DNA of 63,952 bases, the filler included, from Thelocarpon superellum (lineage: Eukaryota): NCBI GenBank assembly GCA_026025795.1. It is 3 parts of 3 records of this genome, joined end to end, with 100 filler letters (N's around TTAATTAATTAA, not from the genome) between each part and the next. Parts side by side here need not be neighbours in the genome. Positions count along the whole stretch, not along the records: positions 24,300 to 48,497 come from JAPEUG010000276.1; 2 more parts are not named here. The stretch is one strand, 5' to 3'. A program made the position numbers and the translations under genes. How positions within the stretch are numbered: position 1 is the stretch's first letter; every line of letters starts with the position of its first letter. The notes under the pieces are model-generated. The model was not told the DNA's origin. It was given only the letters and a program-made list of their open reading frames with translations, and ran no database searches. This document shows, one piece after another, positions 24,200 to 48,597 of the stretch.

Positions 24200-24299
24200 N
24201 NNNNNNNNNNNNNNNNNNNNNNNNNNNNNNNNNNNNNNNNNNNTTAATTAATTAANNNNNNNNNNNNNNNNNNNNNNNNNNNNNNNNNNNNNNNNNNNN
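24200..24299. other. Artificial scaffold/contig spacer (N44-TTAATTAATTAA-N44)
   Basis: Exactly 100 nt with a central palindrome carrying stops in all six frames. An identical spacer occurs at 48498. Confidence 0.95.
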
Positions 24300-29702: not shown

Positions 29703-32069
29703 CTAGCACCACGTGAAGACGGGGTTCTTGCTCTTGACCGTTTCCAGCCGTTCCACGATGACCTTGCGCTGGTTCTTCTCCATGCCCTCGGCCGCGGCGT
29801 AGCCAAGGTCGCCCTCGAGCTCGTCGCCTTCGTAGGGGGTAAGGTTCGGGCGCGCGCTAAAGGAGCTCCCGCGCGCCCGGCCCGCCGTGCTGTGCGATCC
29901 CGTCGGCCGATAGCCACCTTCGAGACTGAGACGACCTTGGTGACGGGGCCCTGCGGATCGCGTGGGATCGGTGGGGACAAGCCGTGAGGAGCGCTCCGTG
30001 GGTGCCGTATGCGGCGCGCCAAGATCGCCATTGCTCCTTTCGGGCGGGGACGAGGCGTGCTCTGGGGGTCGGGCGGCGCCGGTCCCCGTACTGCGGGAGA
30101 CGTTGAAGCGATTGGGTTGTGCGCCATCGCCCATCACCGAGCCGAGGCCCAGCAAGTCATGCTGCGGCGCGGGCGCCGAGGCGTTGGCCGCGCTGATGTC
30201 CATCTCTTCGTCGATGCTGTGGCGAAGCTCTCCGCCACGCCGGCGCCTCATCTCCGCCGACGGCACGCGCAGCGGCACGGCGACCGGGATGTCGACGAGG
30301 TCGTCCCACACGCAGACGCGCGCCCGCCGTGTGAGCTCGAGCGGCCCATGGTCGGGCGTCTTGAGCGTCTCAACCACGTTCCACGCCTGACCCTTCATCA
30401 CGGCGATCTGCCGAGCAAACATTTTCTCCTTAAAGTCCGAATCCTGGCCGAAGACGCGACGGAGCGCCATCTGCGTCTCGCTCCACCATTTGTTCGAGGT
30501 CAGGAGCGGGAGAAAGTGGTCGCGCGTCCGCTGCGAGAATGGCTGACCAATCAGGGAGACGGGCAGGAAGAGCCAGCCAAAGGGGAAGCTCCGCCAGGCG
30601 TCCGGATGCTTCCAGGGCCACGACAAGCTGTTGTCAATGGCTCCAATGGCAATCGATGGGCCGCCTGCGCCATCGCCTGCACTGCCGAGCCCTATCGTGG
30701 CCTCCATGGGCGCTTGTGCGCGGTAAGGGCTCGGCTGCGCCAGATTGGAGAGACCAATGTTTTCGCCATTGCTGTAGACTGGCCGTGGCGACGGCGTCGA
30801 GGCCTCGGTGCCATTCATCTTCGGCGGCTCCGAGGCGATGGAGACTTCTTGTTGCTGCCAATCCACCTTGATCATCCAATTGTCGAGCCCACGATCCGTG
30901 TTCCGCATAATGTAATCCAACACAACCAGCTTCTCCAGCGCCTCGCGGAATGACTCTTGGAGCGCGTCGGTCCAGAAAAACCGGCGCGACTCGGCTTCTA
31001 CCTCCGTCGCCCCAGGCGACACGTCACTCTCCTCCTCGTCATCCGATGCCGCGCCGCGCGGCCGACAGGTCTCGCCCCACGTTCGCCGCTTCTTCGACGG
31101 GGTAGCGTCGGCGCGAAACCCGGCGTGAGGTTGGTCGGGCCATGGGTGTTCTCGCAAGAAGATGTTGGCGTCCTTGAAGCCCTTGAGGAAGACCTGGAAA
31201 CTGCCGACCTTGGGCGGCAGGGCCTTGTGCTTCCGATAGAAGTTTCGCCGGTCCCAGTAGTCATAGAAGAAGGACTTGGACGAGAGATGGACGATGTCGG
31301 TGTACGGCACGAGATTGGTGCGTAGTCGACTGTCGAGGACGTAGGCTGCCGCCTCCGACACGTAGCTCAAGTTGGGGATGAGACACGCCCGGCCGAAGAA
31401 GCAGGGGAAGAGGTTGCGATGGATCCACTTGGTCCACTTGGGGTTGCGAGAGGCATACGGCTCCTCGTCTTTGGGCTTGAAGACGCCGACGATGGTGCCC
31501 TCGGAATTGCGGGCGAAATAGCTGCCGGAGCTGCCCTGGGAGATCATGCTGGGATGCACGCCCATCTCGATGGCGACCCGCACGCTCTCGACGATCTCGT
31601 CGAAGGTGTGTTTGGTGATGCGGCCATCGGCATCGGTCGTCTCGGGCGGCGGGGGGGGCAGGCCGTCCGGGGCCTGGAAGACGGAGTGATGGATCTCCAA
31701 GCGCTCCTCCTCGTCCGTCTTGCCCTTCACGCGCCCGATCTTGAACTTGGACGCAATCTCTTCCGCCCATCGCTCCAGACGGGCGTTGATGGCTTTGATA
31801 TCAACGCCGGACGAATTGCTCCGCTGTCGTCGACGGCCGTGGAGTGGCCGCACGGGATCGGGTGGCGAAGCCAGACCCGAGGCGCGCATGGAGGAGGACG
31901 GCGGCGGCTGGATGGGCAGATAATGAGGGGTCGAGGCGGCATGGGACAAGGTGCGTGGTCGGTGATAGGGATCCTCCTCGTCCGACTCGTCGTGATAGCC
32001 GCGGCCGCTGGCTTCTTCATCCTGGGCGATGCGAGCGTAGCCCGAGGTGGGCGGCCGGGACTTGGGCAT
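29703..32069 (-). CDS. LSB6: Type II phosphatidylinositol 4-kinase
   Basis: ISQGSSGSYF, VFKPKDEEPY, FPCFFGRACL, LDYIMRNTDRGLDNW, AIDNSL, C-terminal PVFTWC. Intronless, 788 aa. Confidence 0.95.
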   Translation of the reverse strand: MPKSRPPTSGYARIAQDEEASGRGYHDESDEEDPYHRPRTLSHAASTPHYLPIQPPPSSSMRASGLASPPDPVRPLHGRRRQRSNSSGVDIKAINARLERWAEEIASKFKIGRVKGKTDEEERLEIHHSVFQAPDGLPPPPPETTDADGRITKHTFDEIVESVRVAIEMGVHPSMISQGSSGSYFARNSEGTIVGVFKPKDEEPYASRNPKWTKWIHRNLFPCFFGRACLIPNLSYVSEAAAYVLDSRLRTNLVPYTDIVHLSSKSFFYDYWDRRNFYRKHKALPPKVGSFQVFLKGFKDANIFLREHPWPDQPHAGFRADATPSKKRRTWGETCRPRGAASDDEEESDVSPGATEVEAESRRFFWTDALQESFREALEKLVVLDYIMRNTDRGLDNWMIKVDWQQQEVSIASEPPKMNGTEASTPSPRPVYSNGENIGLSNLAQPSPYRAQAPMEATIGLGSAGDGAGGPSIAIGAIDNSLSWPWKHPDAWRSFPFGWLFLPVSLIGQPFSQRTRDHFLPLLTSNKWWSETQMALRRVFGQDSDFKEKMFARQIAVMKGQAWNVVETLKTPDHGPLELTRRARVCVWDDLVDIPVAVPLRVPSAEMRRRRGGELRHSIDEEMDISAANASAPAPQHDLLGLGSVMGDGAQPNRFNVSRSTGTGAARPPEHASSPPERSNGDLGAPHTAPTERSSRLVPTDPTRSAGPRHQGRLSLEGGYRPTGSHSTAGRARGSSFSARPNLTPYEGDELEGDLGYAAAEGMEKNQRKVIVERLETVKSKNPVFTWC

Positions 32070-33545
32070 GGTGCTACTCTGGGACCCGTGTTATCATCCT
32101 CGTTGCCGGGACAGAAAGTAGTCAGAGAGCAATCGGACGTCGTCGGCGATCGCACGGGACCGAGATGCTGACGGTCGTGCGGGTCCGTGCTAACACCAAC
32201 CGTTGGACCGATGACGGGGGCCACTCCATGAATTCGCGTCTTGACACAAATCCGGTACTCGCGGAGCTGCCAGCTGCAAAAGGGAAGGGTACGAAGTACG
32301 GCGGGCAGCTTCGGTGGTTGCTCTCCGCTGCCGTAGCAAACACACGGCGGGGTCACGTGCATTGTGCCTCTCACGCGCTCCCTGTTGCAACGCTCGCGCG
32401 GTCAGGCAGGGAGGCCAGCAGCGATAGGCCCATTGATTGACTGTAGGGTCGCAGTCCCGGGGCCTGCGCCGGTCCGCTACTGTGCTGGGTCACGTGTCGG
32501 GGCCGCGCAGCTATTCCTATGACTCCCCTTCTGTTCCTGTTCCTGTCAGTCGGGCGGTTTGGAACAGTACGAGTACGATACTCGTCCTCCTCTTACTTGT
32601 GTTGCGCGCTCTATTTTGGCCTGGTGCCGCGTGCCTCGCCTTGTCGGCCGCGACCAGACTCTCACGCGTGGCTCATCTCATGGCAGAGGATCATTACTCG
32701 TGGCCGCGACGTCCATGCGTCCATATGTCCTGATGTCCATGCGCCCCTGCGGCCTGGTTTGGTCGCCGGGATCCAGGTTTTCCTCCCATCCGCGATACGG
32801 CGACGAGCTACTGGGTCGGGCAGTCAGGGCGCTACAAGACCTTCATGTGCTTCTAGCGCATCCCTCTATCACTCGCGAAATTCCGTCGGCCATCGGGCCC
32901 TCGCCGCTTGCGAAATCGCGGTTTCGCTTCCTCTCCCTTTTCAGCCTTATGTGGTGGTACAGGCGGGCCCCCAAATACTCGCGCGCCGTTGACTTCATTA
33001 AACTACCTGCAGGCCCGCCTTGGTGCCGCCACTAATGGATGGGTAGTGCATCGAGGCAGCAGCCAGCGGTGGGATACTTTAGGCTTGGGTGGCTTGGGTG
33101 GCCCGGTGGCGGCCGGACTTACCTAAGGGTACCGCACTGTAGTTCTCGCTCTTGGGTGGATGGGCACCTACCAGGCGATGTCATACCCTGTCACGTAATC
33201 GCATCCTGGTATAGCGCGGGCGATCAGCGGTCGAGAGGCGCGTAGCCCCCTCCCGCGGACCGCAGGCAAACAACGACGCCTATCTGACCCATGAAGTAAT
33301 GTTACTCGTAGAGGGCCGCACGGCGGGCAGGCCCGACGCCAACACGGTGGAGTTCCTGCTCCCAGTCCTTGCATTGGTCCTCGGACGAGGACTTTCGACC
33401 AGGCCTCGCCGTACTTTTCGACCCGTACCCACCCACTGCGACTCGCGTTAGGCACGCATCGGTGCTTGCGATACGGACATTCTCCGTTTGGCACCATCAT
33501 GGGTGCTGGAGCACGAATCAGCGCAAACGGGCAGGTGTGTATCGC

Positions 33546-33626
33546 CATTGACCTCATTGATCTCATTGGCCTCATTGGCCTCATTGGCCTCATTGGCCTC
33601 ATTGGCCTCATTGGCCTCATTGGCCT
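33546..33626. repeat. 9-bp minisatellite (CATTGGCCT)7 plus 2 degenerate copies, forming tandem CCAAT boxes on the minus strand
   Basis: Seven perfect units at 33564-33626 are preceded by CATTGACCT and CATTGATCT. Confidence 0.95.
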
Positions 33627-34129
33627 TACTCTCCAGGGAGCCAGGGGAAGGCGTGCGATAGGATGCACCAGGCGATAGGACCATTTTCATTACCGATTAG
33701 ATTAGCAGATAGAGGCCGAGCTGCGTCGAGCATTTCGCTCGGCAGGTTTGGCTGCTGAAGCGAATCCTCCCCCAACGGTGGAACCAGAATCTTCAGGCAG
33801 TTGGGCGCTCCCTCGTCTCGCTACACCCCTTACTCCAATGCTGCACGTCGTACGACCGTGACGCCGACCGAGCATGGCGGCCGGGGAGCGTAATGAGCGG
33901 GGAGGTGGAAGGAGGCGGGCTCGATGATGTCCGGGTCTTGGCCGGTCGGCATGATCCGTCGGCCATAACATTCGTCGCCGTGGCCGTGGTCATGGCCGTG
34001 GCCTGTGTACCCAAATTTTACTAACGCCCGCTGGACGCTGCCAGGGCATCGCTGATTTTGCGCGATAATTTGCGCCGCGTGGACGGGCGTGGCCCGCATA
34101 GCGTTCCCCGTCTCCCGGCGTCAGGGTAG

Positions 34130-34169
34130 GAGGACGACTAAGAGGACGAGTAAGAGGACGAGTAAGAGG
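34130..34169. repeat. 12-bp tandem repeat GAGGACGA(C/G)TAA x3
   Basis: Read directly from the sequence. Confidence 0.85.
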
Positions 34170-34687
34170 GCGCGGACGGGGCAGGTCGAGAGGGGATGGT
34201 GGTACCAGTCCGTACCGGTACTCGTCCTCGGCCTGGGCGAGTAGCGAACAGCGACTGGCCCGGCTGCCAGCGTATCTGGGCCGACGCACGCACGCAACAG
34301 CGAGAGGGACGAATAGGATCGCCCGGCCTTGGCCGTCGGCTCATTGGGGGGTGGGCAGGTAGATGGGCAGAGAGGCAGGATAGGCCGCGGCTGCTCGTAC
34401 AGGTACGAGTACTCGCACCATAGGCCCCGTAACCAGGCGTGCGCCAGCAACACCGACCAGCACTATCGACGGGCGACCTGGTTGAAGCAGCGCTTCATTC
34501 TCTTTTCTTATCGCGCCCCAACTTTCTGGACCTATCCCTCTCGTTGCCTTCACCCAAGTCACTCCTTGAGATCTTGTTGTCATCGTACCCTTCCAGTCCC
34601 TACCCCCTCAGCTTCCCACCACCCGTCGCCGTCGCCGTCGCTGTCGCCGTCCCTTTCTTCTCATCCCTTCAAGCAGCACGAGGGACG

Positions 34688-34897
34688 ATGCGTTGAATGC
34701 GTTCACTTGCTCCTCTCCCGTCGCCCGTGAACCCTCGCGCCCGCCGGTGCTCGACGGCCACCCTCCCACCGCCACACGACGACTCCACTCCCTCGAGGCC
34801 TCCCTCGATCATCGGGCGACTTACCCACGTCGCCTCTCTAATACTTAATCACGGCTTCGACGCTGGCTCCATTGATCTACCGGGCGCCGCCGAGTGA
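34688..34897 (+). promoter_or_regulatory. Tandem uORFs in the putative areB leader: uORF1 ATG-CGT-TGA (34688-34696) and uORF2 (34697-34897) overlapping the main ORF out of frame
   Basis: Sequence ATGCGTTGA ATGCGTTCA lies downstream of a pyrimidine-rich tract. The TSS is unknown. Confidence 0.45.
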
Positions 34898-36327
34898 CCC
34901 GTTTCGTGCGTCGGAGCAACACACGCGGGATCTGCCCCCCTTCGCCACGGCCCACGCGGCCGTCGACGACCGGGTCCCGTTACCTCCGCTCGACGACCTC
35001 TCGCGACCGTCGTCGACGTCGACGTCGGCCTCGTCGCATCCACCGACGCACCACTCGCTGCCGTCGCTCCCCGGACTGTCCGCCCTGGCGTCTATTGCGT
35101 CTGCGCCCTCGTCACAGCTCAGGTACGTTCTTTGCGAGGCCGTGATCCACCCCCGTTCCGCCATCGATCCCGCGTCTCACGTCTCTCCCCAACGATCGAT
35201 CTCGCAGCGTGTCTCCCCAATTGCTGTCTCCTTGTCCCCCGTTCCTTGCACGCGTCCTGTCCCATTCCCTGCGTGACGTTGGCTGACCCAAGCGGCTCGA
35301 TAGGGGATATAATGGCGGTCATAGCATGACTTACGCAACATCATCGCCGGCCGCTACCACAGCGGGTCCCGGCAATTCTCCGGTGAGTCTTCTCCCCCGC
35401 TTGTCGCCCCCGACCGTCGTGAAGATCCGTATTGATCCATGGCGCATAGCCGACCTGCCAAAATTGCACAACGTCGACCACCCCGCTGTGGCGACGAGAC
35501 GAGATCGGCTCGGTACTGTGCAATGCCTGCGGGTTGTTCCTGAAGCTGCATGGACGCCCGCGACCGATCAGTCTGAAGACGGATGTCATCAAGAGTCGCA
35601 ATCGTGTCAAGAGCTCTGGCCAGGGGCCGCGGAAGAAGGTAGCCCGCTTCCCGTCTTGATATCTGCCCGTAACGCCGCTGACGACCGTTTGTAGAGTTTG
35701 TTCGACGGTAACAGCCTATCGGCGGCCCGATCGGATGGCGGCACGCCGCCGCCGGGGTCCTTGGGATACCGTCGCACCTCGCAAAAGACGTCGTCGGGCA
35801 ATTCAAATGGGTCGCATTCTCCCTTGTCCCGCACGGCTACCCCCGCCTTTCCCTCGGGCCCGCATCTAAGCCATCCTGGGCTCTTCGACGGTGCTGCCTT
35901 GTCCGACCATGGCTTCCACCCATCGCCCGCCCTTCCCGCGCTACAACTCGGAACGCGGTCGCCTGGCTCGGCGGGCCATGACCGTCATCTCGAGGCACCG
36001 GCCAGCTACGATTCCCTTGTGGCGGCCAACACCTCCCTGAAGACGCGGGTGAGCGAGCTAGAGGTGATCAACGATCTCTACCAGAGCCGAGTCAGTCAGC
36101 TGGAGCAAGAGGCCCAAAACAAGCGGGGCGTGGACGCGGATTCTCAAGCACGGGCCAGGCTTGATGAGATGCAACGACGGGAGAACGAGCTTCGACGGAA
36201 GATCGACCACCTCGAACGCGAACTCTCGGAATACCGCGACGCCGCCCCGCGGGCCAAGAAGATGCGACTTTCGGACATGGTGACGGACGAGGCGACTTCG
36301 TCACCGCGAACCTCGACCCCTTCGTGA
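34851..36327 (+). CDS. areB: GATA zinc-finger/leucine-zipper transcription factor AreB (NreB/ASD-4 type); long isoform predicted from ACG 34851, short isoform from ATG 35326
   Basis: [52 protein letters not shown] and the zipper [17 protein letters not shown]. Exons 34851-35122, 35304-35382, 35450-35638 and 35695-36327 are all in frame. Confidence 0.88.
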
Positions 36328-48497: not shown

Positions 48498-48597
48498 NNN
48501 NNNNNNNNNNNNNNNNNNNNNNNNNNNNNNNNNNNNNNNNNTTAATTAATTAANNNNNNNNNNNNNNNNNNNNNNNNNNNNNNNNNNNNNNNNNNNN
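48498..48597. other. Artificial scaffold/contig spacer (N44-TTAATTAATTAA-N44)
   Basis: Same 100-nt structure as 24200-24299. Confidence 0.95.

Follow-up and report, generated by a model that had tools for sequence, protein, structure and literature searches.

Filamentous fungi have two GATA regulators of nitrogen metabolism, of which AreB is one. Its gene in the fungus Thelocarpon superellum raises a simple question: where does translation of the long form of the protein begin, in a first coding exon that contains no ATG in any frame? The 5' end of this gene (areB/asd-4) lies on the + strand of the stretch of DNA analyzed here, 63,952 nucleotides (nt) from assembly GCA_026025795.1, which is called the window throughout. 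The long AreB very probably starts at an ACG codon (34851) instead of an AUG, both here and in the majority of the related fungi that were compared. It is also likely that the long form is made from this ACG by leaky scanning, that the short form comes from the same mRNA, and that the ACG is the ancestral start. The roles of the AreB isoforms have been described as poorly understood (PMC4246892). If the long form does start at ACG in most classes, most current gene models, and the constructs derived from them, lack or mis-model the N-terminus.

The gene and its short form

Four exons (Table 1) join into one open frame of 390 amino acids (aa), with splicing in T. superellum deduced from the GT-AG signals and from relatives, the number of RNA contigs that bridge an intron being zero. 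A single GATA finger (PF00320, 57.6 bits against a cut-off of 26.8) lies near the N-terminus of the short form, and the C-terminus matches PF25026 (86.6 bits against a cut-off of 29.1). The 19-Mb genome holds one 100% match to areB; a separate 72% finger, on another contig and inside a 1122-codon frame, is taken to be areA. Because there is one exact copy and a separate areA-like finger, and because the protein clusters with proteins named AreB or asd-4, the gene is assigned as the AreB orthologue and not as AreA. Runs of N at 24200-24299 and 48498-48597 separate three contigs in the window, and areB lies well within the middle one.

Translation from the first in-frame ATG (35326) yields the short, or beta, form of 292 aa, which is 100% identical to a public Thelocarpon protein (P0116). 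The model for that protein is without the 98 upstream residues of the long, or gamma, form. The original prediction, drawn by a model from the DNA, held that standard annotation would miss about 98 N-terminal residues, and this is borne out by P0116 and elsewhere: among 120 AreB models, 71 lack the exon-1 motif, and of the 48 that contain exon 1, only 7 begin at either of the two conserved sites described below. The same prediction had exon 1 spliced in frame into the GATA finger; the frame is as claimed, but the junction is not direct, as a 79-nt exon 2 (35304-35382) intervenes. The end coordinate of the prediction, 35329, is the last base of an out-of-frame TGA that overlaps the beta ATG, and it did not include the CTG at 34863, the out-of-frame ATG at 35312 or the upstream ATGs at 34688 and 34697.

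Coding evidence for exon 1

The ACG at 34851 stands in the context TTAATC ACG GCT, with A at -3 and G at +4. The TAA at 34839-34841 is in frame with it and bounds the frame upstream, and no ATG occurs on the + strand in any frame from 34700 to 35311, the in-frame TAA and the lack of ATG in exon 1 being as originally stated; the + strand ATGs within 34000-35460 are at 34196, 34363, 34688, 34697, 35312, 35326 and 35439. The choice of this ACG as the best start candidate is likewise upheld, by its context and by the conservation of the codon across relatives. The dinucleotide AG is absent between 34798 and 34892.

A search of 1646 candidate proteins with the exon-1 translation gave 12 matches at an expectation value (E) <=1e-3, and a profile search gave 168, of which the best 150 were listed. 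Protein similarity starts at T-A-S-(T/A)-(L/V)-A, and residues further upstream do not align. Metagenome contigs scanned with exon-1 patterns provided at least 588 stretches, from which 43 loci were kept and 39 analyzed; L043 and L044 were dropped as false hits with no finger, and L025 and L049 end before the start. The ratio of nonsynonymous to synonymous change (dN/dS) in exon 1 is 0.07-0.36 in 10 pairs (approximate values); comparing the window with L017 gives 0.09, a pairwise figure that spans both lineages. Of the 8 indels within exon 1, 6 have lengths divisible by 3, whereas for the 240 nt upstream the figure is 21 of 97 (p 0.003, from 13 pairs that are not all independent). The low dN/dS, the frame-keeping indels and the protein matches together argue that exon 1 is coding. 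The original prediction had pointed to an alignment of areB 5' regions, and both a conserved near-cognate codon and coding-type conservation emerged from it.

The frame is closed upstream in every case: the window and all 39 loci have an in-frame stop 4-114 codons 5' of the start with no Met between. Across loci, the 200 nt before the start are poor in ATG (11 ATG versus 98 CAT), compared with 161 versus 204 at 500-1000 nt. Transcription of exon 1 is suggested by a 176-nt RNA-library contig that matches 34829-35004 with no mismatch and no joint, crossing the TAA and the ACG unspliced. The RNA came from one run (5% of words), in which one of 4 contigs fits fully and the other 3 fit over 34-40 nt only; missing RNA cover elsewhere in the gene is uninformative. 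In two intron-less contigs (L009 and L034), which are taken as cDNA, leader, ACG, exon 2 and finger follow one another without interruption, and a stop precedes the ACG by 8 codons.

Conservation of the ACG codon

Codons at the start column were counted in 28 distinct sequences, including the window, after collapsing at 95% identity (the ACG-like L045 was left out of the final counts, its alignment being 12 nt off). The column reads ACG in 21 sequences, ACA in 2, TCC in 2, and ATG, GCA and CGG in 1 each. Because ACG is found in 21 of 28 and ATG in only 1, the ACG appears to be the usual start and not a local oddity. Among Thr codons, ACG accounts for 21 of 23 at this column and for 52 of 184 (28%) elsewhere in exon 1; naive binomial p values are 4e-10, 4e-8 after 85% de-duplication (18 of 20) and 0.002 with five clades counted once each, and it tells against their face value that they ignore relatedness and that 14 of the 28 sequences are Leotiomycete-like. 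In both ACA exceptions the start has shifted to another place. Codon use is unconstrained at two control Thr columns, column +3 for instance reading ACA 11, ACT 4, ACG 2 and ACC 1 times, and the base at -3 is A in each of the 22 sequences that carry ACG or ATG. These patterns point to selection on the ACG as a codon, beyond the amino acid that it specifies.

A true ATG replaces the ACG at the same column in one locus (L029). Among proteins, the start column holds Met in P0010, P0037, P0065, P0100, P0111, P0142, P0219 and P0265 and Thr in 43, with the proviso that an N-terminal Met in unnamed proteins may reflect the reading of the gene caller. The replacements in L029, P0010, P0037, P0065, P0100, P0111 and P0219 fall on three separate branches of the tree.

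A second near-cognate site and the Aspergillus GUG

The published A. nidulans areB isoforms are alpha (312 aa), beta (320 aa) and gamma (436 aa), the last initiated at GUG (PMC6494665). The Aspergillus proteins compared here, which do not include the A. nidulans sequence itself, are P0395 and P0400 (436 aa, beginning V/M-A-S-L-L-F-R) and P0114 (320 aa). The initial Val of P0395 and P0400 is read as a GUG start because 436 and 320 aa reproduce the published gamma and beta lengths. This V/M aligns with the Leu of A-S-T-L-A-P, which in the window is the CTG at 34863. In anchor-free DNA alignments, too, three loci have their start-like codon twelve bases 3' of the ACG column: GTG in L039, and CTG in both L040 and L046. 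An arrangement with ACG, GTG, CTG and ATG all in one column was dropped after those alignments shifted these three loci; L047 fits either column and was put at +4 by its protein match. The alignments thus identify the Aspergillus GUG as a second site, not as the ACG site with a changed codon. The original prediction of a conserved near-cognate start holds up, but its suggestion that a different codon is used at the Aspergillus site does not. The GUG would be the sole site remaining in Aspergillus once the ACG had been lost.

The +4 column reads CTG, TTG or GTG in all 14 non-Leotiomycete sequences, against a background of 64 of 160 Leu/Val codons; the subset with a retained ACG gives 8 of 8 (p 7e-4). 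In Leotiomycete-like sequences the column does so in 8 of 14, against a background of 39 of 141. All 6 ACG-less sequences have A at -3 of the second-site codon, which in 5 of the 6 had first been chosen for its start-like look; the 8 of 8 is the unbiased count. These data are best accounted for by two weak starts in tandem, the first of which has repeatedly been lost and repeatedly become ATG.

An additional new ATG lies two codons into the motif in L037. In the moved-start loci (L039, L040, L046, L047 and L048) the protein again begins M-A-S or M-A-T, not M-A-P. A Pro after the starting Met-Ala would block N-terminal acetylation.

History across Pezizomycotina

The tree of finger plus C-terminus is unrooted and contains 20 of 29 sequences with 32 named or reference proteins; L010, L026, L030, L033, L039, L040, L045, L047 and L048, which are without exon 3 or 4, are not in it, and class labels of loci are those of the nearest named proteins. 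ACG or Thr occurs in five tree groups (the window with Thelocarpon, Leotiomycetes, Acarospora-like, Eurotiomycetes and Dothideomycetes), and ACG is the majority state in five clades. Aspergillus and Penicillium are placed inside the Thr-bearing Eurotiomycetes. Over 34 labelled rows (24 ACG/Thr, 3 ATG, 7 lost), six changes are needed, and uniting L046 with the Aspergillus/Penicillium rows in one clade is rejected (approximately unbiased test, p 5e-6). The ACG is probably the ancestral start of the long AreB, where ancestral means parsimony over the five groups, with no Pezizomycete or Orbiliomycete among the retrieved sequences.

Sordariomycete-like sequences (L047, L045, P0258, P0369, P0374 and P0380) have an open frame with a DLPxF motif upstream of their usual AUG (MEE/MDD), and the start region of L047 reads ACC GCC AAG CTG GCA. 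Sordariomycetes may likewise have an unrecognized longer form with a non-AUG start.

A model for isoform production

In the proposed model, leaky scanning on one mRNA of the single areB/asd-4 gene would give two GATA factors, one long and one short. Ribosomes would scan a leader of about 300 nt, and a fraction would start at the ACG to make the 390-aa gamma form; initiator Met-tRNA is used at ACG starts (PMC5666671). Some of the ribosomes that pass the ACG would start twelve bases on, at the CTG, to make 386 aa. The remainder would reach exon 2, where the out-of-frame AUG at 35312 would compete with the beta AUG at 35326 (292 aa). The weak start codon would keep the long form at a low, adjustable share. 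What the data establish is the sequence itself, selection on exon 1 as coding DNA, conservation of the start codon and the alignment between the two sites; initiation, isoform shares, leader length, splicing in this organism and the role of the helix discussed below are the parts of this model that we infer.

The leader probably holds the upstream ATG at 34697, because a conserved non-coding element at 34557 lies further upstream. That element is common to several classes and lies inside the cDNA-like leader of L009; it could mark the transcript start, which suggests that the upstream open reading frame (uORF) beginning at 34697 is included. An overlapping uORF is present in 3 of 25 distinct sequences (the window, L030 and L037), and a conserved uORF layout of the GCN4/cpc-1 type is unsupported in these loci. 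The out-of-frame ATG of exon 2, a possible conserved control element, is kept in some relatives only.

The alpha isoform has no counterpart in the window, because the TAG acceptor of intron 2 closes the frame 5' of the finger and the ATG at 35439, within that intron, is out of frame. Of the 31 genomic loci that include the GATA exon, 26 keep an in-frame Met at this place. The in-frame AUG of intron 2 is absent from L015, L016, L019, L036, L046 and the window, which lie on separate branches, and it appears that alpha was lost repeatedly. Some Leotiomycetes (L009:334-1540; P0062, P0098 and P0101) have no in-frame exon-2 AUG and no beta, their first AUG lying inside exon 1.

A wider proposal can be built on the model, one that is doubtful when taken whole. 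The tandem pair would, since the ancestor of the five classes, have set the dose of a long isoform carrying a Sin3-type helix absent from the short forms. That dose would have been retuned by loss of the ACG (Aspergillaceae, some Dothideomycetes) or by hardening to ATG (several Leotiomycetes). A longer non-AUG form would also lie hidden upstream of the annotated start in Sordariomycetes, the much-studied AreB of Fusarium and ASD4 of Neurospora among them. If true, start-codon stringency setting the isoform share would explain how AreB acts as both repressor and activator. The natural series of ACG plus CTG, ACG plus GTG, GTG alone, CTG alone and ATG, all in one context, makes the relationship of start strength to isoform dose testable.

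Alternative readings

Several points weigh against the ACG as the main start. Initiation at ACG or CTG is deduced from the sequence; CUG is generally the more efficient near-cognate, in the ranking CUG > GUG > ACG (PMC5666671), and the CTG at 34863 may carry more starts than the ACG. No hairpin beyond chance is found 3' of the ACG (z 0.37). The 66-codon uORF that begins at ATG 34697 overlaps the ACG out of frame, is probably in the leader, and could divert ribosomes. The ACG is missing from 6 of the 28 sequences and is to that extent dispensable. Loci were picked by exon-1 likeness to the query, which leaves lineages with a diverged exon 1 under-sampled, and the G at +4, partly imposed by anchor patterns that included an Ala codon after the start, provides no independent evidence. 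The RNA contig is one record of depth 2 from one study, with DNA carry-over possible. One alternative is that the long form comes mainly from the CTG, the ACG being a minor start or conserved as context for the CTG. The occupancy of the +4 column (14 of 14 non-Leotiomycetes, and 8 of 8 with ACG kept), the A at -3 of the second site in all 6 ACG-less sequences, the A at -3 and G at +4 of the window CTG itself, and the general strength of CUG (PMC5666671) are all as this alternative would have them. However, the +4 column is CTC or CTT in 6 of the 14 Leotiomycete-like loci, while 13 of the 14 retain the ACG, and true ATGs appear at the ACG column and not at the CTG column. The ACG also comes first in scanning and has a fixed A at -3 of its own, 12 nt being too distant for it to serve as CTG context, and the four residues before the CTG site (T-A-S-T/A) are conserved. 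A long form made chiefly from the CTG is quite unlikely.

Exon 1 might instead be transcribed and hardly translated in this organism, if the uORF at ATG 34697 or a downstream transcript start has turned the extension into a relic, with only beta made. The nearest upstream ATG is indeed closer here (154 nt) than in most relatives (170-540 nt), the alpha start is already gone from the genome, a small one of 19 Mb, and the RNA evidence is slight. Yet the frame of exon 1 is intact, as are its two start codons with their contexts and every invariant residue of the motifs, with the low dN/dS against L017 given above (0.09, pairwise over both lineages). Moreover, the context of ATG 34697 is weak (T at -3, C at +4), and this ATG abuts the stop of a 2-codon ORF, a position at which, by scanning theory, re-initiating ribosomes would be expected to skip it. 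A relic is a very unlikely account of exon 1. The remaining alternative is an unseen upstream exon that supplies a normal ATG, as several public models assume; 25 of the 48 models containing exon 1 do start 5' of the conserved boundary. The 5' parts of those 25 models do not align mutually, however, and because there is no AG, and hence no acceptor, between the TAA at 34839 and codon 15, such an exon could not supply the ATG. The unspliced RNA-library contig and the stop 8 codons before the ACG in L009 and L034 speak against it as well, and this reading is close to excluded. The preferred reading remains initiation at the ACG, with the CTG as a second start.

The N-terminal extension

The extension is rich in Ser, Pro and Thr and predicted to be disordered (predicted local distance difference test score, pLDDT, 60; predicted template modelling score, pTM, 0.17), with conserved short motifs; Pfam has no family for it. 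One helix is predicted, at low confidence, for SALASIA (residues 80-86 of P0001). In the model, the extension would be a disordered tail whose most conserved piece, this short helix, is most likely a docking site for a co-regulator.

Consensus patterns of Sin3-binding helices are listed in PMC10163088. The predicted AreB helix resembles the Sin3-interaction helices of REST and TGIF1 in being a short helix in a disordered region, with similar spacing (L-x-x-L-A-x-I-A). It differs in that the published pattern wants a bulky residue where AreB has Ala (PMC10163088), and the fit to the REST/TGIF1 pattern holds only if Ala counts as hydrophobic. The pattern is kept in 160 of 251 proteins with the motif, while its chance rate is 0.01 per 98 aa in ORFs of the window. 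The Sin3 PAH1 of the same genome was located. The yeast relative Dal80 binds Sin3, Cyc8 and Tup1; its binding region, residues 151-200, lies behind the finger, whereas the candidate helix of AreB is N-terminal. Phosphoproteome papers naming AreB gave no peptide from the extension, and the supplement of PMC8399174 gave no match, its Table S6 possibly being outside the search. A co-repressor role for the helix is a tentative suggestion, with the chances somewhat against it.

Other features of the region

Features of the locus are collected in Table 1. The 1.5 kb 5' of the ACG contains 6 HGATAR sites (33656-34513), compared to 2.4 expected, three of them clustered at 33656-33712; over 19 sequences the count is 110 against 77 expected from a crude shuffle. 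These sites would fit control by AreA or by AreB itself. Nine tandem copies of CATTGGCCT (95% matches) lie at 33546-33626, 1.2-1.3 kb 5' of areB in the divergent intergenic region, and the CATTGGCCT copies read as repeated CCAAT boxes on the - strand. Shorter tandem repeats 5' of areB are found at 34126-34169 (12-bp unit x3.7) and 34623-34651 (CCGTCG x4.8). Divergent from areB is a long ORF at 29703-32090 (-), 795 codons from stop to stop, a putative type II phosphatidylinositol 4-kinase (LSB6-like).

Table 1. Features of the areB region, numbered along the window
Feature	Position	Strand	Remarks
Short non-coding element GTCACTC..TTTGA	34557-34571	+	like element 209-297 nt 5' of start in about 12 of 29 sequences
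Two upstream ORFs	34688-34897	+	ATG-CGT-TGA (34688-34696, A at -3); 66-codon ORF 34697-34897
In-frame TAA, four codons 5' of ACG	34839-34841	+	seen in the sequence
Coding part of exon 1	34851-35122	+	90 codons + 2 nt; ends at GTACGT donor
ACG, proposed main start of long (gamma) AreB, 390 aa	34851-34853	+	A at -3, G at +4; conservation begins here
CTG, second near-cognate start, would give 386 aa	34863-34865	+	A at -3, G at +4
Most conserved motif of extension, predicted helix	35067-35102	+	invariant alignment columns
Intron 1	35123-35303	+	181 nt, GT-AG; absent from intron-less contigs L009, L034
Exon 2	35304-35382	+	79 nt; peptide same in relatives
Out-of-frame 5-codon ORF (MAVIA, then stop), strong context	35312-35329	+	TGA overlaps beta ATG
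First in-frame ATG, beta-isoform start	35326-35328	+	P0116 begins here
Intron 2	35383-35449	+	67 nt; TAG acceptor = in-frame stop
Exon 3, GATA zinc finger	35450-35638	+	PF00320, E 9e-16
Intron 3	35639-35694	+	56 nt, GT-AG
Exon 4, Asd-4 (leucine-zipper) domain and stop	35695-36327	+	PF25026, E 1e-24

Relation to known systems

A non-AUG AreB-gamma has reportedly been known since 2001, in work attributed to Conlon et al. In the literature search, which left most subscription papers outside its scope, no areB ACG start, tandem pair or codon turnover was found. The ACG, the tandem pair and the turnover are apparently new; since the non-AUG AreB-gamma and conserved fungal near-cognate starts are already in print, they represent no new mechanism.

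The closest comparison is with A. nidulans areB, which shares with the window gene a GATA finger and zipper, three introns, a non-AUG long form begun in exon 1, and a beta form from the first AUG in exon 2 (ATG 35326 in the window). The two differ in that the proposed main start in the window is an ACG four codons 5' of the GUG equivalent, which is here a CTG, so that there are two candidate starts instead of one. The extension also measures 98 aa in the window and 116 in A. nidulans. In A. nidulans, moreover, alpha has its own promoter and an in-frame AUG in intron 2, whereas the 67-nt intron 2 of the window has no in-frame AUG. Retention of intron 1 in A. nidulans leads to a beta-only mRNA (PMC6494665).

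Fusarium fujikuroi AreB-a/b/c and the Sordariomycete AreB/ASD4 proteins are similar in providing several N-terminal isoforms of the same factor, and in Fusarium only the largest isoform was seen in nuclei under nitrogen sufficiency (PMC5404775, PMC4246892). The Sordariomycete models start at an AUG inside exon 1, about 15 residues before ISRPSS, whereas exon 1 of the window has no AUG. The ISRPSS motif is near the protein start in 67 of 120 proteins.

The Neurospora crassa cpc-1 gene has several conserved near-cognates, the best conserved being an ACG whose -3 and +4 positions are invariably A and G (Ivanov et al. 2017, PMC5487733). In vitro tests have been made of the cpc-1 starts, which serve to bypass an inhibitory uORF that is conserved (PMC5487733), whereas the areB starts are proposed from sequence, the areB uORFs are not conserved, and the two areB starts are only 12 nt apart. 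What the two genes have in common is that each encodes a Pezizomycotina transcription factor with a conserved ACG and branch-specific codon changes (PMC5487733).

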